Shown here: one piece after another, positions 52,110-60,896 of the stretch
Layout of the letters: the number at the start of each line of letters is the position of its first letter
Numbering within the stretch: position 1 is the stretch's first letter
Origin: Deferrisomatales bacterium
GTDB taxonomy: Bacteria > Desulfobacterota > Deferrisomatia > Deferrisomatales > JACRMM01
Length of the DNA stretch: 64,000 nucleotides
Direction: 5' to 3'
Assembly: GCA_033551855.1 (NCBI GenBank)
Contig: JAWSUI010000002.1
Span: 96,001-160,000 of the forward strand
Position numbers and translations under genes: made by a program
The notes under the pieces: model-generated
The model's database searches: none
The model's input: only the letters and a program-made list of their open reading frames with translations
What the model was told of the DNA's origin: nothing

Positions 52110-55100
52110 TCAGGATGTCCCTGGGTCCTCCGCCTCCCTGCCCGAAGATCCCCACCAGTTCCGCAGCCGCCGCAGGCGGCGGGGTCCGCGTCGAAAGATT
52201 TCCTCCAGGGAGAGATGGGGGTCTCGGGCCGGATCCTCCAGGTAGTCCCGGATCGCGTCGAGACGGCGTCGGAGGTCCCCCTCCAGGGCGAGGCGCAGCC
52301 CAGCCCTTCCCGCCAGGATGCGCTGCTTGAGGTTCGGTGGGGGGCGCTCTCCTTGGTGCTTCCTCAGCTTGTACTCGATCCGTGCGGCGATCAGACCCAA
52401 GAGGGTCTCCTGGTGCTCGGGGCCGAGCCACAGCACCTCCGGGACCAGGTCCCCGAAGTGGGTCACCCCCAGGACATCCTTCCCCTGCGCCCAGTAGCCG
52501 GCAAGGAACTCCGGATCGAGGTCCCGGTAGTTCTGCAGGGGCAGATACATGCGCCGCAGGTGCTGGAGGACCTTTTCGGCCTTGCGCCTGTGGCCGCCGA
52601 TGATGACGGGGCTCCCCACCTCTCCGCGCTTGACCCCCTTGGTCCAGGGGGCGCCCGTGATCCCGAAGTCGTTGCACACCGGAATGAGCAGGAGGGCGGA
52701 GAGGGTGCTGATGGCCAGCGCGTAGCCCGCCGAGGGGCCTCCCACCGCGTAGGAGGCGGACAGCAGTTGGTGGTGGACGGTGTACTTGTCGAGGAACTCT
52801 CCCAGAAGCCGGGCGACGTTGATCTTGGGTGAGAGGCCCTGGAGGTAGTTCTCCACCAGTGTAAGTGCCTCCCGGGCGGACTGTTGGGTCATCTGGACGG
52901 CCATGTCCATCTCCGCCGCGGTGGGCGCGGTCGAGGAGACCGCACCGGTCACCAGCACCTTCTCGGCCGAGAGGTTGTAGACGAGGCTCGTCGCGATGGG
53001 CAGGAGCACGCCCGCCACGTCGCTTGCCCCCACACCGACGATGAACCCAACCTGGGGCTCTTGGCTGAGCTCCGCCTCCAGGAACTCGTCGAGTTGCACC
53101 TTCCCCTTCTTCGTCGGGCTCTGACTCATCTCCTCCCGGGCCGCCTCGAGGTGGGAAGCTGCCAGGGGGTAGTCGTCGCTGCCCCGCACCCCGTCCGCCA
53201 GCGCCAGGACCTCTTCGCAGTGCCGCAGGAACTCCAGGGGCTCGCTCTCCAGCCGTGCCTTGGCCGTTCGAGGAGCCCCGAGGGCCTCCAGGATCCCGAG
53301 GAGGATCCGCAGGTTGAACTTCACGAAGTTCTCTCGGGCTTCGGGGGGCGCTGCGGTGAGCTCCCGAAGCCTGCGAATGACCGCCCACTCCGTGGCCCTC
53401 AGGGCCAGGGCCTTGTCGGTGAAGGCGGCGTAATCGGCCGGCGTGTTGCACACCGCTCGGGCCGCCTCCTCGATCCGTGCGGGGTCGAGCTTCTCTGCCA
53501 GTGGGATGCCGGCCAGCTTCTTCGCCACGATCTCGGCGACGTCGTCCCGCCGCAAGTGTCCGCTGATCTCCAGGGCCTTGAGGCGCTTGGAGCGCACGAG
53601 GGCCGGGTCCAGGATGTCGAGGCGGTTGGTGGTGAGCACGGTGAAGACCCGGTTGAGGGGCACCTCCCCGTCCACGAGGTTGAGGAACTTGTTGGTCACT
53701 TTGTCCTGGGGTGCCCCTCCCGAGGGGCTCCGGCGGGGGACGAGGGCGTCCCCTTCGTCGATGAAGACCACGGCCGGCGCGATCATCTTGGCAATGTCGT
53801 ACACGTGCTCCAGGTTCTCCACCGTGCCGTCGATGGGGTTCATCGGATCCTGCAGGTCCGTGGGACGCACGGCCAGGTCGTGCACGTCGGGATTCTCGCT
53901 CAGCCACGCCCGGGCCAGGAAGGTCTTGCCGCTGCCAGGAGGGCCCGCCAGCACGAGCCCCTTCTCGTCGCTCACCCCGTAGTAGAGGCAGTTCATGGCC
54001 AGCTCGGAGAACTGGTTCTTGATCCCGCCCACGTACTGCTCCCAGCGCACCGAGCGATCCATCCGGTCCACGACCCGCTTGTAGAGATCCCCGTGGGCGT
54101 TGCGGGCCACCTGCTCGAAGGCGCTGCGCACCAGGAGGGCGTCGTCCAGGTGATCCGGCCGGAACCCCCCCCGCATCTCGACGATGGACCGGACCAGCTT
54201 GCGCACATAGGAGGGAGTGATCTTGAGCGCCTTCTCCCGGAAGATCGGGTAGAGCCGGTCAACCGCCGCTTCCAGATCCGCCGGGGGCAGGTACGAGATC
54301 CCCGGGGGCAGGGGACCCACGGGCGGGAAGCCCACCCGGATGTCCGCCCGCAGGAGCTCGATCCGCACGACCTCCCGCAGATTGTCGCGGCTCTTCCAGA
54401 ACTCGGAGACATCGACGATGCGGCCCTTCTCGACGAAGCGGCGGTAGATGGCCGCATCGAACCTCTCGGGCTGGTCCGTCGTGGCGACGAGGACACAGTC
54501 GCGCTGACCGTCGATGATCTCGTCCAGCAGGATGTTGGCGGTGTCCACCAGGGTCTGTTGCTGGCTCGAGACCGAGGTGGACCGGCTTTCCGCCCGGCCG
54601 AAGGCGCTGTGGGCCTCCTCCACGTGTCGGACGGTGGTGCGTCGAGGGTCCCCGAGGGCCTTGCGCAGGTAGTTGCCGGGTTCCCCGGCCAGGGCGGTCT
54701 GGTAGTCGTTGGGGGTGACCACGGCGTAGTCCACGGCGAGGCCCCGCTCCTGGAGCTCGGCCAGGTGCCCGGCAACGCGCTTCTGGAAGAGCCGCCGTAC
54801 CAGCCAGCGGCGCGAAAGGAACTGGTAGAGCTTGAGGCGCCGCCGGCGGTAGATGTCCTGTGCCAGGGTCGGATCCACCGACTCGATGGTGCGCCAAAAA
54901 GGCTCTTCGGCCAGCACCTCCTCGCGCTTCTTGCCCAGGTCGACCTCGGGAAGGACTTCGTGGCGGAACATCACGGCCTCGAGGGCCTCGGCCGTCGTCG
55001 CGGTCTTGCCGGCGCCGCTGGGACCGATCACCAGCAGTAGCGGGGCCTTGGGCACCTCGGGATCGGCCAGGTACTCCTTGCGGACGTGGACCCGGTAGAT

Positions 55101-55511
55101 CTTTTCGAGGAGCTCCCGGAACTCCGAGGGGACGTGAACGTCGGCGAGCTCCCGGTTCAGGAGCGCCAGCAGGTAGGTGTAGTCCTTGGCCGTCAGCTCC
55201 CTCTCCAGCATGCGGTTCCACGCCGCCCGGGGGGAGGTCTCTCCGGAGAATTCGAACCGGCGCTGCCAGTCGGTGAGGATCTGGGGGTCCCGCAGGATCG
55301 CAAACCCCTGTTCCCGAGGGCGCCAGAGCAGCGAGAGCAGCCCTTCCACCAGGCCGTGCAGGAGGCCCGACGGCGGGGTGAACTGGTTCAGGCGTGCCCG
55401 CAGGAATGCCTTGGTCTCGTAGGACCAAGAGGCCACGAGCGCCTCGATCTCCCGGATGCGCCGCTCCGGGAGGCGGACGTACCGGACCTCTCTGGTGACC
55501 CGTTTGGCCAT
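52110..55511 (-). CDS. Double AAA+ ATPase fused to a C-terminal Lon-like (S16) protease domain
   Basis: AAA1: GPSGAGKT, HVEEAH, TTDQPERFDAAIYRRF; AAA2: GPPGSGKT, VFIDEGD, TTNRLDILDPALVRSKR; protease: PQVG...G, VTG, QQSAREA, GGPSAG, ITG, IGG...K. Confidence 0.85.
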   Translation of the reverse strand: MAKRVTREVRYVRLPERRIREIEALVASWSYETKAFLRARLNQFTPPSGLLHGLVEGLLSLLWRPREQGFAILRDPQILTDWQRRFEFSGETSPRAAWNRMLERELTAKDYTYLLALLNRELADVHVPSEFRELLEKIYRVHVRKEYLADPEVPKAPLLLVIGPSGAGKTATTAEALEAVMFRHEVLPEVDLGKKREEVLAEEPFWRTIESVDPTLAQDIYRRRRLKLYQFLSRRWLVRRLFQKRVAGHLAELQERGLAVDYAVVTPNDYQTALAGEPGNYLRKALGDPRRTTVRHVEEAHSAFGRAESRSTSVSSQQQTLVDTANILLDEIIDGQRDCVLVATTDQPERFDAAIYRRFVEKGRIVDVSEFWKSRDNLREVVRIELLRADIRVGFPPVGPLPPGISYLPPADLEAAVDRLYPIFREKALKITPSYVRKLVRSIVEMRGGFRPDHLDDALLVRSAFEQVARNAHGDLYKRVVDRMDRSVRWEQYVGGIKNQFSELAMNCLYYGVSDEKGLVLAGPPGSGKTFLARAWLSENPDVHDLAVRPTDLQDPMNPIDGTVENLEHVYDIAKMIAPAVVFIDEGDALVPRRSPSGGAPQDKVTNKFLNLVDGEVPLNRVFTVLTTNRLDILDPALVRSKRLKALEISGHLRRDDVAEIVAKKLAGIPLAEKLDPARIEEAARAVCNTPADYAAFTDKALALRATEWAVIRRLRELTAAPPEARENFVKFNLRILLGILEALGAPRTAKARLESEPLEFLRHCEEVLALADGVRGSDDYPLAASHLEAAREEMSQSPTKKGKVQLDEFLEAELSQEPQVGFIVGVGASDVAGVLLPIATSLVYNLSAEKVLVTGAVSSTAPTAAEMDMAVQMTQQSAREALTLVENYLQGLSPKINVARLLGEFLDKYTVHHQLLSASYAVGGPSAGYALAISTLSALLLIPVCNDFGITGAPWTKGVKRGEVGSPVIIGGHRRKAEKVLQHLRRMYLPLQNYRDLDPEFLAGYWAQGKDVLGVTHFGDLVPEVLWLGPEHQETLLGLIAARIEYKLRKHQGERPPPNLKQRILAGRAGLRLALEGDLRRRLDAIRDYLEDPARDPHLSLEEIFRRGPRRLRRLRNWWGSSGREAEDPGTS

Positions 55512-55517
55512 GTCGGT

Positions 55518-56465
55518 TCAGCGGGCTGCGGGGGGGGCCGGCGCCGGCTGTGGCGGTGGGGCGGGCAGGGTCAAGGCGGGGGCGCCCCCGGTGTTTTGGA
55601 TCACCACCGTGTTCTGGCCCGTCTGGTTCTTCTCATAGGCCGTGGCCCACTTCTGCTGGTTGAGGAACTCGAGCAGGGCCGTGTCGGTGGCGCCATCGGG
55701 GCGCCCGACCTCCCGTTGGAGGTCCCGGATGCTCTCGACGTACGCGCCGTAGAGCTTCCGGATTCGGCTGGCCTCCTGGTCGGCGGCGTAGTTCTCCGCC
55801 TCGGCGATGAGCTCGCGCCGCTTCTTTTCCTCACTGGCTTCCACGAGGTTGTCGCCGAAGCGGGTCTCCCGGAGAACGAAGCTGACCACCTCTACGCCGT
55901 ACTTCTGTTCCAGGGTGGGCCCACCGACGTTGATGGGTCGGTCCTTGAGGGCCCGGTAGATCTCCTCCTTGATCTCTTCCCTCGCGCTCACGAGGCGGTT
56001 GATCTCCTGGGCCTGGAGAATGTCTTTCGCCAGCCCGTCGTAGTCGGCCTGGAGGAGCTCGAGCGGACGCAGGTTCTCGATCGCCCACAGGCGCAGGTCG
56101 CGGATGCGGAAGGTGAGGACACCGGAGGTCCAGAGGGCGACGTTCTCCCGGGAGATGATCCGCACCGGCTCCTCGACCCCCCCCAGCGCCAGGCGCTGGT
56201 TCATCAAGGGCACTTCTTGCTCGATCCGGGTGAAGAACGGGAGCCTCGTGTGCCAGCCGACCTCGGTGATCACCTCACGGGTGCCCCCCAGCCGCTCGAG
56301 CACCACGGCGTAGTTGAGGCGAACCTTGAAGATCGTGCGGGTCGCGTACACCACGGCGACGGCGCCGTAGAGGAGCCCCGCCAGGACCGCCAGGCCCACC
56401 AGGCGGCGCACGAGGGCCGTCACGGCGGCCCTCCTCAGCAAAGGGGGAGTCTCCGGGTGTTCCAT
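55518..56465 (-). CDS. SPFH/Band-7 (HflC-like) membrane protein
   Basis: N-terminal TM, VVLERLG, GWH.RLPF, ISRENV, .REEI, KYGVEV.SF....RF, helical AEAE segment. Confidence 0.85.
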   Translation of the reverse strand: MEHPETPPLLRRAAVTALVRRLVGLAVLAGLLYGAVAVVYATRTIFKVRLNYAVVLERLGGTREVITEVGWHTRLPFFTRIEQEVPLMNQRLALGGVEEPVRIISRENVALWTSGVLTFRIRDLRLWAIENLRPLELLQADYDGLAKDILQAQEINRLVSAREEIKEEIYRALKDRPINVGGPTLEQKYGVEVVSFVLRETRFGDNLVEASEEKKRRELIAEAENYAADQEASRIRKLYGAYVESIRDLQREVGRPDGATDTALLEFLNQQKWATAYEKNQTGQNTVVIQNTGGAPALTLPAPPPQPAPAPPAAR

Positions 56466-56855
56466 GTCGTCCCCTGGGCGGCCGGCGGGCCCGCGACGGA
56501 AAGGTGGAAGCGCTCCTTGGACAGGGTAGACGGGCCTGGCATCAGCGCAAGGCACCGGCTGTCGCCTGGTGACCCAGGCAGCCCCCCGGCGCCGCCAGGA
56601 GGAAGGCCCGGCGCACTGCCCTGTCGGGCCGATGGACCCGAACGACCCGCGTCCATCGTCAGATTCCGGGCGGGGCCGGAGCGTGACGCACTCGGGTGCC
56701 GCCTCGACCGCGGCATCGAACCCCGGGCAGAATCGCGGGGCTCGGCGCACCCGTTCCCGGGGGGGGCAGCCCGTCCCCAGCATCGGATTCGGCAGGAATG
56801 CGAAGAGACTCCCCGACCCCGAGCACGCGTCGGGCGAGGGATCCAGGAAGGCCTG

Positions 56856-57060
56856 GATCCACCGGCTGGTCGGCGAGCGGAGTCCGGGAGCCCCTGCGTT
56901 TCACCCCGCAATCCGCGACACTTCGACGAAGTGTCCCAGCAGTCCCCGGTGCGCCCGGCCTCACCCGCTTGCGCCGGCCTCGTCGGGTTGGTGGATGCGG
57001 TGCGGTGCTGCACTCCTGGGCTCCCGGACTCCGCCCCACAATGGGGTGGTGGATTCCGGG
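56856..57060 (+). repeat. About 200-bp dispersed repeat, copy 2
   Basis: See 41443-41644; begins within the palindrome GGATCCAGG-aagg-CCTGGATCC. Confidence 0.8.
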
Positions 57061-57198
57061 AAGGGTTGGTCCCTTGCGCCCCGGGCCGTTCCTCAGTAGA
57101 AAGGACGTCCATCCGGGCTTCCGTGGCACCTGCACCGGGACGAGGGGGGCGGGGGCCGCCCCGTGCTCCGGAGACGGTGTCGGAGCAGGAGGTGCCGC

Positions 57199-58233
57199 TT
57201 GAAGGTCCAGTTTCGGAATCTGGTGTTCGAGGGGGGTGGGGTCAGGGGCATTGCCTACGTGGGGGCCATGAAGTTGCTGGAGCAACGGGGAGCCCTCGAC
57301 CACGTCCGCAGGGTCGGCGGCGCCAGCGCCGGGGCGATCAACGCGCTGATCCACGCCCTGGGATTTCCGATCGCCGAGCAGCAGCAGCTTCTATCCTCGA
57401 CGGATTTCCGGCGGTTCCTCGACGACTCCTTCGGGGTGATCCGCGACGTGCGCCGCCTCGCGAGGGAATTCGGCTGGCACAAGGGCGACTTCGTCTCCAC
57501 TTGGGTGGGCGACCTCATCGAGAGCAAGCTCGGGCGGCGCGACGCTACCTTTCGGGACCTCCAGGCTGCCGGCCGTCCTGACCTCTACGTGGTCGGGACC
57601 AACCTGAGCACCGGGTGGGCAGAGGTCTTCTCCGCCGAGCGCCACGGCGACATGCCCCTGGCCAGGGCGCTGCGCATCAGCATGTCGATTCCCCTCTTCT
57701 TCGCGGCGGTGCGTCATGGGGCCCGGGGGGACGTCTACGTGGACGGGGGCGTGGTGCTGAATTACCCGGTCAAGCTCTTCGACCGGGAACGGTACGTGGA
57801 CCTCGCGGGGGAGCCCTACGGGGCGGCAAGCACGGCATACTACAGCCGCGAGAACGCCCGCTTCGCCCTGGAAAGGCCGGGGCGGAGCCCCTACGTGTAC
57901 AATCGGCAGACCCTCGGCCTGCGGCTGGACACCCGGGAGGAGATCGCGCTCTACCGGTACGACGAGCCCCCCAGGGGCCGCCCCATCTCCCGGTTCACGG
58001 AGTACGCCCGGGCGCTCACCTCCGCCCTGCTGCGGGTGCAGGAAAACCAGCACCTCCACGAGGACGACTGGCACCGTACCCTGTACATCGACACCCTGGA
58101 CGTCCGGACCACGGACTTTGCGCTGAGCGAAGAGAAGAAGGCGGCGCTCCTGGAGTCGGGCATCGCGTGTGCCGAGGCCTACTTCCGCTGGTTCGAGGAC
58201 CCGGCGCAGGTCCCCGCGAACCGCGTAGGGTGA
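57199..58233 (+). CDS. Patatin-like phospholipase
   Basis: NLVFEGGGVRG, GASAG, SMSIPLFF, YVDGG; TTG start after AGGAGGT. Confidence 0.93.
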   Translation: MKVQFRNLVFEGGGVRGIAYVGAMKLLEQRGALDHVRRVGGASAGAINALIHALGFPIAEQQQLLSSTDFRRFLDDSFGVIRDVRRLAREFGWHKGDFVSTWVGDLIESKLGRRDATFRDLQAAGRPDLYVVGTNLSTGWAEVFSAERHGDMPLARALRISMSIPLFFAAVRHGARGDVYVDGGVVLNYPVKLFDRERYVDLAGEPYGAASTAYYSRENARFALERPGRSPYVYNRQTLGLRLDTREEIALYRYDEPPRGRPISRFTEYARALTSALLRVQENQHLHEDDWHRTLYIDTLDVRTTDFALSEEKKAALLESGIACAEAYFRWFEDPAQVPANRVG

Positions 58234-58311: not shown

Positions 58312-60102
58312 GTGAACCCCCGCATCGCCTCCATGGAGAACCTCATCGCCCGGGATCCGGGCGGGAGGAACGTCTTCGGGCTGGTCGCCGCGGACCAGCT
58401 CCGGCTCGCCGCCCAGGCGCTGCGGTTCGCCCGGCGCGTGGCCGTGGTCACCGGGTACTTCATCCCGGAGGCCGGGGCGGGGGAGACGGATGGCCCCCCC
58501 GGGGCGGTGGCCCTCGGCGAGGCGCTGGGGGCCCTGGGCATCCCCGTGGACTACCTGACCGACGGCCCCAACGCGCCGCTTCTGCGCTCCCTGGGCGCCG
58601 AGCCCATCGTCCTCGAGGGCGCCCCTGAAGACGTCGCCGCGGGCTGCCGACGCTACCTGGAGGAGAGCCGCCCCACCCACCTGGTCTCGGTGGAGCGGGC
58701 GGGGCGCGCGGCGGACGGGACGTACCGCAACATGCGCGGTACCGACATCACGACCGTCACCGCACCCCTGGACGAGCTCTTCCTGGAGGCGTCGCAGCGG
58801 GGCCTGACCACCATCGGGGTCGGGGACGGCGGCAACGAGATCGGAATGGGCCGGGTGTTCGCCGCAACGAGAACCGGCGTGCCCCATGGCCGGGCGCTCG
58901 CCACCACCGTGGCGACCGACTTTTGCGTGGCCGCCGGCGTCTCCAACTGGGGAGCCTTGGGGCTCGTGGGCGCCCTCTCCGTCCTGGAGGGGCGGGACCT
59001 GCTGCCTTCCGGGGCTCGCCTCGTGGAGGGGCTCCACCGCTTGGTGGAGGTGGGCGGTGCCGTGGACGGCGTGACCCGCCGGCGGGAGCCGACGGTGGAC
59101 GGCCTGCCCGTGGCCGAGTCTCTCCGGGTCCTCGCGGAGTTGCGCGGACACGTGGCCCCGCCGCCCTTCCTCTCAGGAAGGCCCCTGGCCGTAGGCGTCC
59201 TGGGGTGGGGGGAGACCGGGCGCGCCGCCGCTGCGCTGTTGCGACGCCGGGGGCACCGTGTGCGGGTCTCGGACCACGCGGCGGTGTGTCCCCCTTCCGA
59301 GGAGGACGAAATCCTCGAGGGCTTCGAAGCAGGTGGGCATACCGTCGGCTTCCTCGCCCCCTGCGACGCGGTGGTTGCGAGCCCGGGTGTGCCGGTTGAC
59401 GCCCCGATCCGGGCGGCCCTCCACGAGCGGGGCATCCCCGTCGTGAGCGCCCTGGAGATGGCCTACGCGTTCTGTCCCCATCCCCTCGTAGGCGTGACCG
59501 GGACCGTGGGGAAGCGCACCACGGTGGAGCTCATCGGGCGCATGTTTCGCCAGGCCGGACGCCCCGTGGCTGTCGGCGGCAACCGCGGCGCACCGCTGGC
59601 GGCCCTCCTGCTCGGGCAGGACGGCCGGCCCCCGGAGCCGGACACGACTCTGGTCCTGGCGGTATCGAGCTTCCAGTTGGAGGGCGTGGTGCACTTCCGT
59701 CCCCCCATCGCGGCGATGCTCAACATCGACGCGGCACACCTCGACCGGCACCGCACCGTGGCCGAGTACGTGCGGGTCAAGAGCCGCATCTTCATGAACC
59801 ACCGCCCCGAGGACGTGCTCATCCTCAACGGCGAGGATTCGAGGCTCCGGCCCCTTGCATCGAAACACCCGGGGCGCACCTTCTTCGTGGGGCGCCGCCG
59901 GACCGGGGATCTCGGCGCGTGGCTGGAGCGGGGGGGGGTCCGTGCGAACACCGAGGGGGCCGTGGAGCGGCTGGGCCGGGCCGAGCACCCCTACCCGGAG
60001 GTGCTGCTCACCGCCGTGCTGGCCGCTCTGCTGAGCGGGATTCCCCCCGACGCCGCCGGGGCTGCGCTGCGCCGGGTTCGCACCGGGGGAGGGAGCACCT
60101 GA
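58312..60102 (+). CDS. DUF4392 (D-glutamate cyclase C-terminal-like) domain fused to MurD-like N-terminal and central domains
   Basis: DPGGR, TGYF, ETDGPPGA, VERAG...G.Y.NMRG, IGVGDGGNEIGMG, VSNWG; then VLGWGETG, ASPGVP, GVTGTVGKRTT, GGN.G, SSFQLE, HLDRH, KSRIF. Confidence 0.85.
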   Translation: MNPRIASMENLIARDPGGRNVFGLVAADQLRLAAQALRFARRVAVVTGYFIPEAGAGETDGPPGAVALGEALGALGIPVDYLTDGPNAPLLRSLGAEPIVLEGAPEDVAAGCRRYLEESRPTHLVSVERAGRAADGTYRNMRGTDITTVTAPLDELFLEASQRGLTTIGVGDGGNEIGMGRVFAATRTGVPHGRALATTVATDFCVAAGVSNWGALGLVGALSVLEGRDLLPSGARLVEGLHRLVEVGGAVDGVTRRREPTVDGLPVAESLRVLAELRGHVAPPPFLSGRPLAVGVLGWGETGRAAAALLRRRGHRVRVSDHAAVCPPSEEDEILEGFEAGGHTVGFLAPCDAVVASPGVPVDAPIRAALHERGIPVVSALEMAYAFCPHPLVGVTGTVGKRTTVELIGRMFRQAGRPVAVGGNRGAPLAALLLGQDGRPPEPDTTLVLAVSSFQLEGVVHFRPPIAAMLNIDAAHLDRHRTVAEYVRVKSRIFMNHRPEDVLILNGEDSRLRPLASKHPGRTFFVGRRRTGDLGAWLERGGVRANTEGAVERLGRAEHPYPEVLLTAVLAALLSGIPPDAAGAALRRVRTGGGST

Positions 60103-60896
60103 TGCTCGAAACCAATCGTCTCCCCACCGGACGGGACGTGCGCGACGCCTGCCGCCGGGGCGAGCTCACGGGGCCCACCGCCGGCTTGGCCCCTGGGTAC
60201 GGCCAGGCCAACCTGGTCGTCGTGCCCCAGGAGGCGGCCGAGGACTTCGCGGCCTTCTGTGAGCGAAACCCCAGGCCCTGCCCCCTCTTGGAGCGGACCG
60301 GACCCGGCGGCTGGGAGCCCCGGCGCCTCGCGCCGGGGGCCGACCTGCGCACCGACCTCCCCCGCTACCGGGTGCTGCGGGAGGGGCGGTGCACCGCTCG
60401 GCCCACGGACATCCTTTCCCTGTGGCGTGAGGACTTCGTGGCCTTCCTGCTCGGATGCTCCTTCACCTTCGAGGCCGCGCTCCTCGACGCCGGGGTCCCG
60501 GTTCGACACCTCGAGGAGGGGCGCAACGTGCCCATGTTCCGCACATCCTTGGCCTGCGTCCCCGCAGGGCCCTTCAGGGGCCCCTTGGTGGTCTCCATGC
60601 GCCCCATGCCCCCGGAGCAGGCGGCCCGCGCGGCCGAGATCACGGCGCGCCACCCCCACTTCCACGGCGCTCCGGTCCACGTGGGCGACCCCGGGGCCAT
60701 CGGCGTCGCCGACCTCGCCAGACCAGACTATGGCGACGCCGTCACCGTGCGACCCGGGGAGGTTCCCGTGTTCTGGGCCTGCGGCGTCACCCCTCTGGAG
60801 GCCCTCCTTGGTGCGGGGCTCGAGGTCGCCGCGACCCACGAGCCCGGCCACATGTTCGTGACGGACCTCTCCGACCGGGATCTGCTGGGGCTGTAG
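60102..60896 (+). CDS. DUF1445 putative hydro-lyase (D-glutamate cyclase family)
   Basis: TAGLAPGYGQANL, FC.RNPRPCP, DLRTDLPRY, GCSFTFE, NVPMF.T, VVSMRP, HGAPVH.G, VFWACGVTP, TH.PGHMFVTD. Confidence 0.92.
   Translation: MLETNRLPTGRDVRDACRRGELTGPTAGLAPGYGQANLVVVPQEAAEDFAAFCERNPRPCPLLERTGPGGWEPRRLAPGADLRTDLPRYRVLREGRCTARPTDILSLWREDFVAFLLGCSFTFEAALLDAGVPVRHLEEGRNVPMFRTSLACVPAGPFRGPLVVSMRPMPPEQAARAAEITARHPHFHGAPVHVGDPGAIGVADLARPDYGDAVTVRPGEVPVFWACGVTPLEALLGAGLEVAATHEPGHMFVTDLSDRDLLGL

Follow-up and report, generated by a model that had tools for sequence, protein, structure and literature searches.

Structure and support of the fusion gene

The window, as the whole 64,000-nucleotide stretch analysed here is called, comes from contig JAWSUI010000002.1 of a Deferrisomatales bacterium (positions 96,001 to 160,000, forward strand), referred to below as the host. 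It carries a gene that joins a DUF4392 domain to domains 1-2 of the peptidoglycan ligase MurD, followed by a gene of the DUF1445 (YcsI) family (Table 1). A first-pass annotation of this DNA had described one open reading frame that combines the two modules and lacks the C-terminal D-glutamate-binding domain of MurD, and this is borne out by Pfam and by alignment. Hidden Markov model searches confirm PF14336 (257 bits against a cut-off of 27.9), PF21799 (residues 295-378) and PF08245 (residues 395-531) in the fusion protein and PF07286 in the downstream gene, with no Pfam match to Mur_ligase_C in the fusion protein. The MurD model TIGR01087 is matched over profile positions 2-250 of 441 with 175 bits, below its cut-off of 211.95. 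In the alignment, the C-terminus falls at about Thr294-Gly298 of E. coli MurD, short of His301-Arg302, and a regular expression for this hinge motif gave four matches in the family, all in unrelated stretches. The altered motifs GTVGKRTT, AVSSFQLE and AAHLDRH are present at the sites named for them, PYPEV stands where HN..N would be expected, and the TGATG overlap with the DUF1445 gene is found as described. Most homologues of the fusion open with MNPRI.

Table 1. Position of the fusion gene, its domains and motifs, and the coupled DUF1445 gene in the window.
Feature	Position	Strand	Evidence
DUF4392-pseudo-MurD fusion gene, 596 aa, GTG start	58312..60102	+	Pfam, homologues, AlphaFold2
DUF4392 / GLUCM-like_C domain, TON_0340 fold, residues 8-278	58333..59145	+	Pfam E 3e-76, Foldseek
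Six acidic metal ligands (span)	58483..59100	+	Alignment to 4DWZ and PMC5132392
Short interdomain linker, residues 282-292	59155..59187	+	Model secondary structure
MurD domain 1, UDP-binding Rossmann fold	59188..59475	+	GxGxT/SG, D35- and SPG-equivalent motifs retained
MurD domain 2, remodelled; ends ahead of His301-Arg302 hinge and domain 3	59476..60087	+	
P-loop GTVGKRTT: Lys115 retained, Asn113->Val, Ser116->Arg	59500..59523	+	
AVSSFQLE: Glu157->Ala, Gln162 retained	59659..59682	+	
AAHLDRH: Asp182->Ala, His183 and Arg186 retained	59731..59751	+	
PYPEV at the HN..N site; Val at the Asn271 position	59989..60003	+	
TGATG stop/start overlap (translational coupling), purine-rich stretch 5' of it	60100..60104	+	Sequence
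DUF1445 / YcsI gene, 264 aa	60102..60896	+	PF07286 E 1e-64; NF003969 over cut-off

The AlphaFold2 model of the fusion, built with 104 aligned sequences, is confident along the whole chain (mean predicted local distance difference test (pLDDT) score 92.6, predicted template modelling score (pTM) 0.92) and resembles TON_0340 and MurD structures in Foldseek. The modules are predicted to pack together in the model, and linker residue P285 is kept in 96% of 162 fusions.

The junction, for which a check of support had been proposed, is covered by a 16 kb contig of the public run X1, which spans the whole region without gaps and differs from it at 70 places over 4,171 bases; run X1 consists of contigs only and is perhaps not independent of the window's habitat. 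An assembly chimera or a local pseudogene fusion is rejected, since homologues carry both domains, this contig is gap-free and the ratio of non-synonymous to synonymous substitution rates (dN/dS) is low (see below). A TAG within the match of the sister genome, G001, is the natural stop of its gene. Searches of this locus gave no match to a sigma-70 promoter or terminator and no GC anomaly.

Distribution and phylogeny of the family

The fusion is not unique to one assembly. More than 150 full-length homologues were found, in two subfamilies, and both domains are present in all of the best 120 homologues listed, whose matches span 90-100% of the length at 52-98% identity. The second subfamily comprises 37 proteins, with Syntrophobacteraceae and SAR324 as source names. 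When a profile of the MurD part was searched against 1.84 billion representatives, the full-length matches were DUF4392 fusions only, followed by canonical MurD at up to 234 bits; matches of all lengths otherwise comprised fragments and one internally deleted form. In this form, P0123, the N-terminus of the fusion is joined straight to the MurD part and DUF4392 is deleted (a deletion or a misassembly). A search of the Atlas returned MurD-like clusters only.

Of 401 sampled genomes from the host phylum, with three candidates scored per genome, eight have the fusion: the host, six of the seven members of family f27 and one of family f107. Among 40 closer relatives it occurs in the sister genome only. 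In the Phycisphaerae, it is present in ten of the 121 genomes of an order sample, while a class sample of 201 genomes has DUF4392 in six, three of them as fusions. A restriction to Phycisphaerae is rejected, as the host, its sister and the second-subfamily carriers lie outside that class.

In a quick IQ-TREE tree the window protein is nested among Phycisphaerae copies, as sister to that of genome G281 (Shimodaira-Hasegawa-like approximate likelihood-ratio test (SH-aLRT) support 99). Thus, the fusion was likely transferred into the host lineage. The MurD parts of the fusions form one clade, which the best trees set apart from the MurD of Phycisphaerae and of the host. These trees speak against the idea that the pseudo-MurD arose when a carrier's own murD was duplicated, although approximately unbiased (AU) tests decide neither way; as neither grouping is rejected (p 0.33 and 0.09), the donor of the pseudo-MurD is left unassigned. 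Pseudo-MurD and canonical murD share a contig in five Phycisphaerae genomes.

Conservation of the DUF4392 domain

The metal ligands of the archaeal protein TON_0340 (E59, D61, E115, D157, E161 and D246) correspond to E58, D60, E128, D172, E176 and D263 of the fusion, and all six are invariant (121/121, and 37/37 in the second subfamily). The DUF4392 part matches TON_0340 in Foldseek with a TM score by target of 0.86-0.87. TON_0340 is reported to be a weak Mn-dependent phosphatase and to have a small cavity (PMC5132392).

Comparison of 162 fusions with 68 stand-alone DUF4392 copies gave 34 near-invariant positions common to both, and additional positions conserved only in the fusions (residues 10-57, 152, 182-229 and 275-285). 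We read the clusters among the latter (10-57, 182-229 and 275-285) as mapping to the helices that form the dimer surfaces of TON_0340. This pattern points to an unchanged cavity that would take the same small substrate, together with a new docking face or interface. Inter-domain covariation across the 162 sequences showed phylogenetic noise only.

Among 70 stand-alone DUF4392 loci, DUF1445 lies nearby in 30 and a pxpC-like gene in five, and no match at the level of D-amino-acid transaminase (Dat) was found in any of them. A class-III aminotransferase gene lies 3' of the stand-alone gene in 17 of the 70 (among L050-L109, Rokubacteria/Methylomirabilota loci), and a gamma-glutamyltranspeptidase gene lies 5' of it in four of the 70.

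Losses and retained residues in the MurD part

Residues were compared (in E. coli MurD numbering) in an alignment of E. coli MurD, 33 canonical MurD sequences and 109 fusion parts, 12 of 121 having been dropped where the pattern failed. They were recounted by pattern in 120 homologues and 126 canonical MurD-like representatives, and again in the second subfamily (n=37). The position of Glu157 is Ala in 119/120 homologues and Ala or Ser in 37/37 of the second subfamily, with Glu in none (0/120, 0/37), compared with Glu in 33/33 canonical MurD and in 119/126 representatives (7 unparsed). Arg replaces Ser116 in 118/120 homologues and is seen there in 0/126 representatives. Ser116 and Glu157 are Mg ligands of the Mg-ATP site. 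Asp182 is retained in 2/120 homologues and Asn113 in none, and His267-Asn268 and the whole of domain 3 are lost in the fusion family. The loss of the HN..N motif noted earlier holds for the window copy, but not as a family trait for Asn271, which is kept in 93/109 aligned relatives and in 28/37 of the second subfamily.

The residues retained are the glycine-rich loop, Asp/Glu35, Ser71-Pro72-Gly73, Glu96, Lys115, Asn138, Gln162, Asn178, His183, Arg186 and Lys198. Gly73 and Asn138 are found in 109/109 and 37/37, His183 in 109/109 and 36/37 and Asp/Glu35 in all, and Lys115, Gln162, Arg186 and Lys198 are near-invariant. Among the equivalents of contacts to UDP-N-acetylmuramoyl-L-alanine (UDP-MurNAc-L-Ala), Thr16, Asp35, Gly73, Asn138 and His183 are retained, and positions 15, 36 and 37 vary in canonical MurD too. 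All contacts that are listed in PMC12844806 and conserved in canonical MurD are kept. Lys198 and Arg302 of MurD are covered in PMC4816537, where Arg302 contacts ADP. New features are a basic residue at the Ile139 position (Arg or Lys in 120/120, Lys in 37/37), which places a positive charge beside Asn138, and the invariant surface positions R488, R492, M495, G521, G535 and W537.

Over nine pairs, dN/dS ranges from 0.11 to 0.30 in the MurD part and from 0.09 to 0.31 in DUF4392. As the two ranges are similar, the MurD part is maintained, and both subfamilies are under purifying selection. The MurD part is likely to be a binding module rather than a ligase. In the second subfamily, position 116 (R24/L7/S4/K2) and position 117 (S17/T10/D4/A2) have drifted while the residues close to L-Ala are fixed; the wall precursor is therefore a more probable ligand than ATP. 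The earlier proposal of a pseudo-MurD that senses UDP-MurNAc-L-Ala or ATP therefore stands as regards a non-catalytic module with a conserved precursor pocket, with ATP the less likely ligand. Two further members, P0129 and P0127, are more eroded and have lost the equivalents of Lys115 or Lys198.

The fusion as a substitute for a missing murD is rejected. Canonical murD, whose presence the first-pass annotation had proposed to check, is found among other mur genes on contig C7 of the host, in 10/12 Phycisphaerae carriers and in 6/7 others; the search for it gave no match in G043, G244 and G532.

The coupled DUF1445 gene

Two cysteines of DUF1445 are invariant in 40/40 sequences (GC119SF and AC227GVTP), and both precede helices in the model (pLDDT 92.0). 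The fold matches 2PIF, itself a DUF1445 protein (Z 35.0). Outside the family, the one clear structural match is to the C-terminal part of NrpR (3NEK; Z 9.8, rmsd 4.0, 168 aligned), which binds 2-oxoglutarate. No racemase or epimerase fold is listed for the DUF1445 model, though DUF1445 may still have such chemistry; racemase activity of DUF1445 is our inference only. The predicted complex of the fusion and DUF1445 has a score of 0.00, which counts neither for nor against association. The two halves may form one complex; bearing on this are the coupling of the genes and triple fusions that carry DUF1445 in the same chain (6 of the best 120 homologues). The adjacent, coupled DUF4392 and DUF1445 genes agree with the split pair resembling D-glutamate cyclase that had been predicted. 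In genome G657, a broken DUF1445 copy directly follows pxpABC (L442:7744-8217), and an intact copy is found elsewhere in the same genome.

Genomic context and the 5-oxoproline link

An OPLAH-type 5-oxoprolinase gene lies directly upstream of the fusion in 15 of 17 loci from genomes of the Phycisphaerae group (in L042 and L046 only the B half is seen), and DUF1445 adjoins the fusion in nine of the 17, two loci being cut by contig ends. The three-part order of OPLAH-type gene, fusion and DUF1445 is seen in 8/8 longer metagenome loci (L339-L346). Within the order sample of 121 genomes, DUF1445 is found in nine, all of them among the ten carriers, and in four it is unlinked to the fusion; the OPLAH-type gene is found in 9/10 carriers compared with 21/111 others. 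The host has pxpABC on another contig. Second-subfamily carriers have DUF1445 (5/5) and pxpA with pxpBC beside it (5/5), in four cases with an intact DUF1445 gene no more than about 7 kb away and, in three of the four, an amino-acid ABC transporter between them. The link to D-glutamate metabolism that had been suggested earlier is strengthened by the oxoprolinase in the operon, by the co-occurrence of DUF1445 and by the failure to find the glutamate racemase MurI in most carriers. In at least six loci (L038-L047, L248, L249, L252), the gene just upstream of the oxoprolinase is secA, suggesting that the operon holds a stable place on the chromosome in their clade.

D-glutamate sources in carriers

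In the order sample, MurI is found in 95/111 non-carriers and 0/10 carriers, three of the ten being judged by absence from the match list; nor was it found in two further carriers (0/12 in all). A Dat-like gene, with best matches to D-amino-acid transaminase models below their cut-offs, is present in 10/10 Phycisphaerae carriers and 19/111 others. As the carriers form one clade, the MurI pattern in Phycisphaerae counts as one event. The Dat-like transaminases of the MurI-lacking clade (L259, L261, L267, L290 and kin) fall below both NCBIfam cut-offs. They have no counterpart of a lysine at the position that we take to bind the side chain of 2-oxoglutarate.

The second subfamily is a case apart: five of seven carriers tested (97-100% complete) gave no MurI over the cut-off and no Dat-level match, their best Dat score being 109 bits compared with 256-283 for Dat-like proteins. 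By inspection, a RacX-like racemase is encoded in G474 and a protein resembling hydantoin racemase in G503. Among sampled relatives, 15/41 genomes have neither a MurI match nor the fusion. Thus, since some Desulfobacterota lack both, other sources of D-glutamate exist. Family f4 (G010, G012, G014, G016, G018, G020) likewise has MurI in 0/6 and no fusion, and one of its genomes is a single contig, 98% complete. DapF as a racemase is reportedly the subject of one study. A search for a MurL-like gene gave no match in ten genomes, and the control genomes gave none either.

The canonical MurD of six Desulfobacterota carriers is of the D-Glu type, with Asp182, Lys319, Lys348 and Ser415 kept in the five that are MurI- and Dat-negative. 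Glu182 is found in none of 18 carrier MurD sequences and Arg348 in one. The diagnostic residues of D-Glu-type MurD and of MurD2 (Glu/Arg) are those given in PMC8788868, in which Pro at 414 left the stereospecificity of MurD2 unaltered. In the ten Phycisphaerae carriers examined, position 182 of canonical MurD is His or Gln and position 414 is Pro, and similar changes occur in the non-carriers G167, G188, G293 and G118. Across the MurI-lacking Phycisphaerae clade (L118-L121, L240-L246, L323-L328), canonical MurD carries His or Gln in place of Asp182 and often Pro in place of Ala414. In the carriers of that clade SNAQL replaces SSFQL in canonical MurD, and the altered sites lie near the glutamate pocket.

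A proposed gated D-glutamate salvage and its alternatives

The reading proposed here, tentatively and with somewhat less than an even chance of being right, is a salvage of D-glutamate to L-glutamate via 5-oxoproline that would be gated by UDP-MurNAc-L-Ala through the pseudo-MurD. The fusion protein likely provides the catalytic half of a bacterial D-glutamate cyclase that is split in two. Its di-metal DUF4392 site would cyclise D-glutamate to 5-oxo-D-proline, by extrapolation from the mouse two-domain protein, which cyclises D-glutamate and showed no racemase activity (PMC5339696). DUF1445 would convert 5-oxo-D-proline to 5-oxo-L-proline or act as a partner subunit, which is the weakest step. 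An ATP-dependent oxoprolinase, to which gene context points (the OPLAH-type enzyme of the Phycisphaerae operon and PxpABC of the host), would open the lactam to L-glutamate. This is the simplest flux, as the oxoprolinase would act downstream. Without a brake, such an ATP-driven drain from D to L would starve MurD of D-glutamate; UDP-MurNAc-L-Ala bound by MurD domains 1-2 would solve this by shutting the cyclase when the precursor accumulates. Cells without a racemase would need a clearance route for D-glutamate plus a brake that protects MurD. The brake would mirror the case of E. coli MurI, which this precursor activates (PMC12844806).

Several observations weigh against gated salvage. No bacterial DUF4392 protein characterised as a cyclase was found in the literature searched. 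MurI is also missing from 16/111 non-carriers, and the Phycisphaerae carriers are one clade, two non-carriers included, inside a wider group that lacks MurI and mostly bears Dat. The host and the sister genome have murI and no Dat, searches for DUF1445 gave none in the sister genome, which is 95% complete, or in G244, and a pure drain would leave five carriers without any detected D-glutamate source. Asn178, in the adenine pocket, is invariant and Asn271 mostly kept, which leaves room for nucleotide binding. The window copy itself departs from the family consensus at K66V, E380A, R534L and N564V, and, of the 25 codons in which it and the related strain differ, 12 are non-synonymous (among the 40 of 70 differences listed). 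Thus, the window copy may be drifting in the host.

As neither MurI nor Dat was detected in five carriers, D-glutamate supply stays a live rival to disposal, though an unlikely one. With the same sensor and the reverse flux, the fusion and DUF1445 would supply peptidoglycan D-glutamate via 5-oxoproline, switched on by UDP-MurNAc-L-Ala: DUF1445 would invert 5-oxo-L-proline, DUF4392 would open 5-oxo-D-proline and MurD would pull the product away. In accordance with this, all five carriers have DUF1445 and a D-Glu-type canonical MurD that lacks the Glu/Arg signature of MurD2, and the same precursor activates E. coli MurI. However, the oxoprolinase of the same operon would consume 5-oxo-L-proline, and the Dat-like gene of the ten Phycisphaerae carriers, the racemase-like proteins of G474 and G503 and the Desulfobacterota without MurI or fusion (15/41, and f4) point to other sources. 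The lactam is also thermodynamically favoured, and the mouse two-domain enzyme is without racemase activity (PMC5339696). It is equally improbable that the MurD module does not respond to UDP-MurNAc-L-Ala but is instead a scaffold, a sensor of ADP or ATP without Mg or of another UDP-sugar, or a docking site for a partner. The invariance of Asn178 and Lys115, the retention of Asn271 and an Arg at the Ser116 position that could replace Mg would fit another ligand, and the six new invariant surface positions (R488 to W537) suggest an interface. The drift at 116/117, the loss of the ADP-contacting Arg302 with domain 3 and the fixed L-Ala-proximal residues (Asn138, Gln162, His183, Arg186) argue against another ligand.

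That the fusion acts on the precursor is very unlikely. Here it would hold UDP-MurNAc-L-Ala-Glu, and the di-metal site would hydrolyse the terminal residue (proofreading) or DUF1445 would epimerise it (a MurL-free MurD2 route). The precursor pocket is kept and the Glu-covering domain gone, and the altered positions 182 and 414 in MurD of the ten Phycisphaerae carriers are both near the Glu site in MurD2. However, the cavity residues of DUF4392 are the same as in stand-alone copies, the cavity is small (PMC5132392), similar MurD changes occur in non-carriers, the MurD of the six Desulfobacterota carriers is of the D-Glu type, and Pro at 414 was without effect on MurD2 stereospecificity (PMC8788868); the oxoprolinase link would also be left unexplained. 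It is quite unlikely, and compatible with every other reading, that the fusion is a transferred, relaxing passenger in a murI-bearing host and functional elsewhere. Its nesting among Phycisphaerae copies, its presence in 1/40 relatives, the consensus departures and the non-synonymous strain differences are consistent with this. On the other side, the frame is intact, the six metal ligands, the precursor-pocket residues and the coupling to DUF1445 are kept, and dN/dS to the nearest relatives is 0.22-0.30.

Neighbouring genes in the window

A patatin-like phospholipase gene (57163-58233, + strand) ends 78 bases before the fusion and has weak matches, below cut-off, to a CBASS lipase model and other patatin models. 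Among the loci compared it stands beside the fusion only in the host, and it is not counted as part of the system. Positions 57000-57060 match many different X1 contigs (summed depth 1132 compared with 29 nearby) and are probably an intergenic repeat. On the opposite strand (52110-56783, - strand), an SPFH/band-7 gene lies directly upstream of a gene whose 1133-aa product combines AAA modules with a Lon-type protease domain at its C-terminus (Pfam AAA and Lon_C); a GPSAG serine motif and, further on, a lysine can be seen in it. The two genes resemble a stomatin-protease pair, with a Lon-like architecture that is unusual.

Significance and comparison with known systems

The fusion and its partner are known domains in an undescribed, conserved arrangement; no description of a DUF4392-MurD fusion was found in the open literature searched, subscription journals and supplements lying outside that scope. 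Neither DUF4392 nor DUF1445/YcsI has an established role in bacteria; the arrangement ties both families to the D-glutamate of the cell wall by way of a MurD reduced to its substrate pocket, and bears on the origin of D-glutamate in bacteria without glutamate racemase or D-amino-acid transaminase. If the sensor is real, a Mur ligase has been recycled as an allosteric domain, giving a second, independent coupling of D-glutamate to UDP-MurNAc-L-Ala. If the supply route is true, it would explain the walls of Desulfobacterota that have a D-Glu-type MurD and no detected MurI or Dat, and DUF1445/YcsI would be a pyroglutamate racemase.

Mammalian D-glutamate cyclase (DGLUCY / C14orf159 / 9030617O03Rik; PMC5339696) has the same DUF4392 and DUF1445 domains, whereas in the window they are split between two genes in reversed order with MurD domains 1-2 between them, and the bacterial activity is predicted. 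TON_0340 of Thermococcus onnurineus (4DWZ, 4FC5, 5GKX, 5GL2-4) has the same fold and the same six ligands (PMC5132392); it is a stand-alone archaeal protein, whereas the fusion has in addition the MurD module and a conserved patch on its surface. With canonical MurD the fusion shares the fold of domains 1-2 and Gly73, Lys115, Asn138, Gln162, Asn178, His183, Arg186 and Lys198. It differs in lacking domain 3, the hinge, Asn113, Ser116, Glu157 and Asp182, in the basic residue at 139, in being fused to DUF4392 and in coexisting with a canonical murD.

With E. coli MurI (PMC12844806), the proposed shared logic is control of the D-glutamate pool by the substrate of MurD. However, MurI is an unrelated protein, and the sensor of the fusion would be a borrowed ligase fragment with inferred regulation. 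The Bacillus subtilis operon pxpA-ycsG-ycsI-pxpB-pxpC has the same link of DUF1445 (YcsI) to an ATP-dependent 5-oxoprolinase (PMC10448178), the enzyme of the Phycisphaerae loci being OPLAH-type. The B. subtilis operon is without a DUF4392-MurD fusion, and PF14336 was not found in 14 control genomes including B. subtilis. MurD2/MurL of Xanthomonas (PMC8788868) likewise bypasses glutamate racemase and handles the substrate or product of MurD, whereas MurL is ATP-dependent and unrelated to DUF4392 and DUF1445, and the Desulfobacterota carriers are without the MurD2 Glu/Arg signature.

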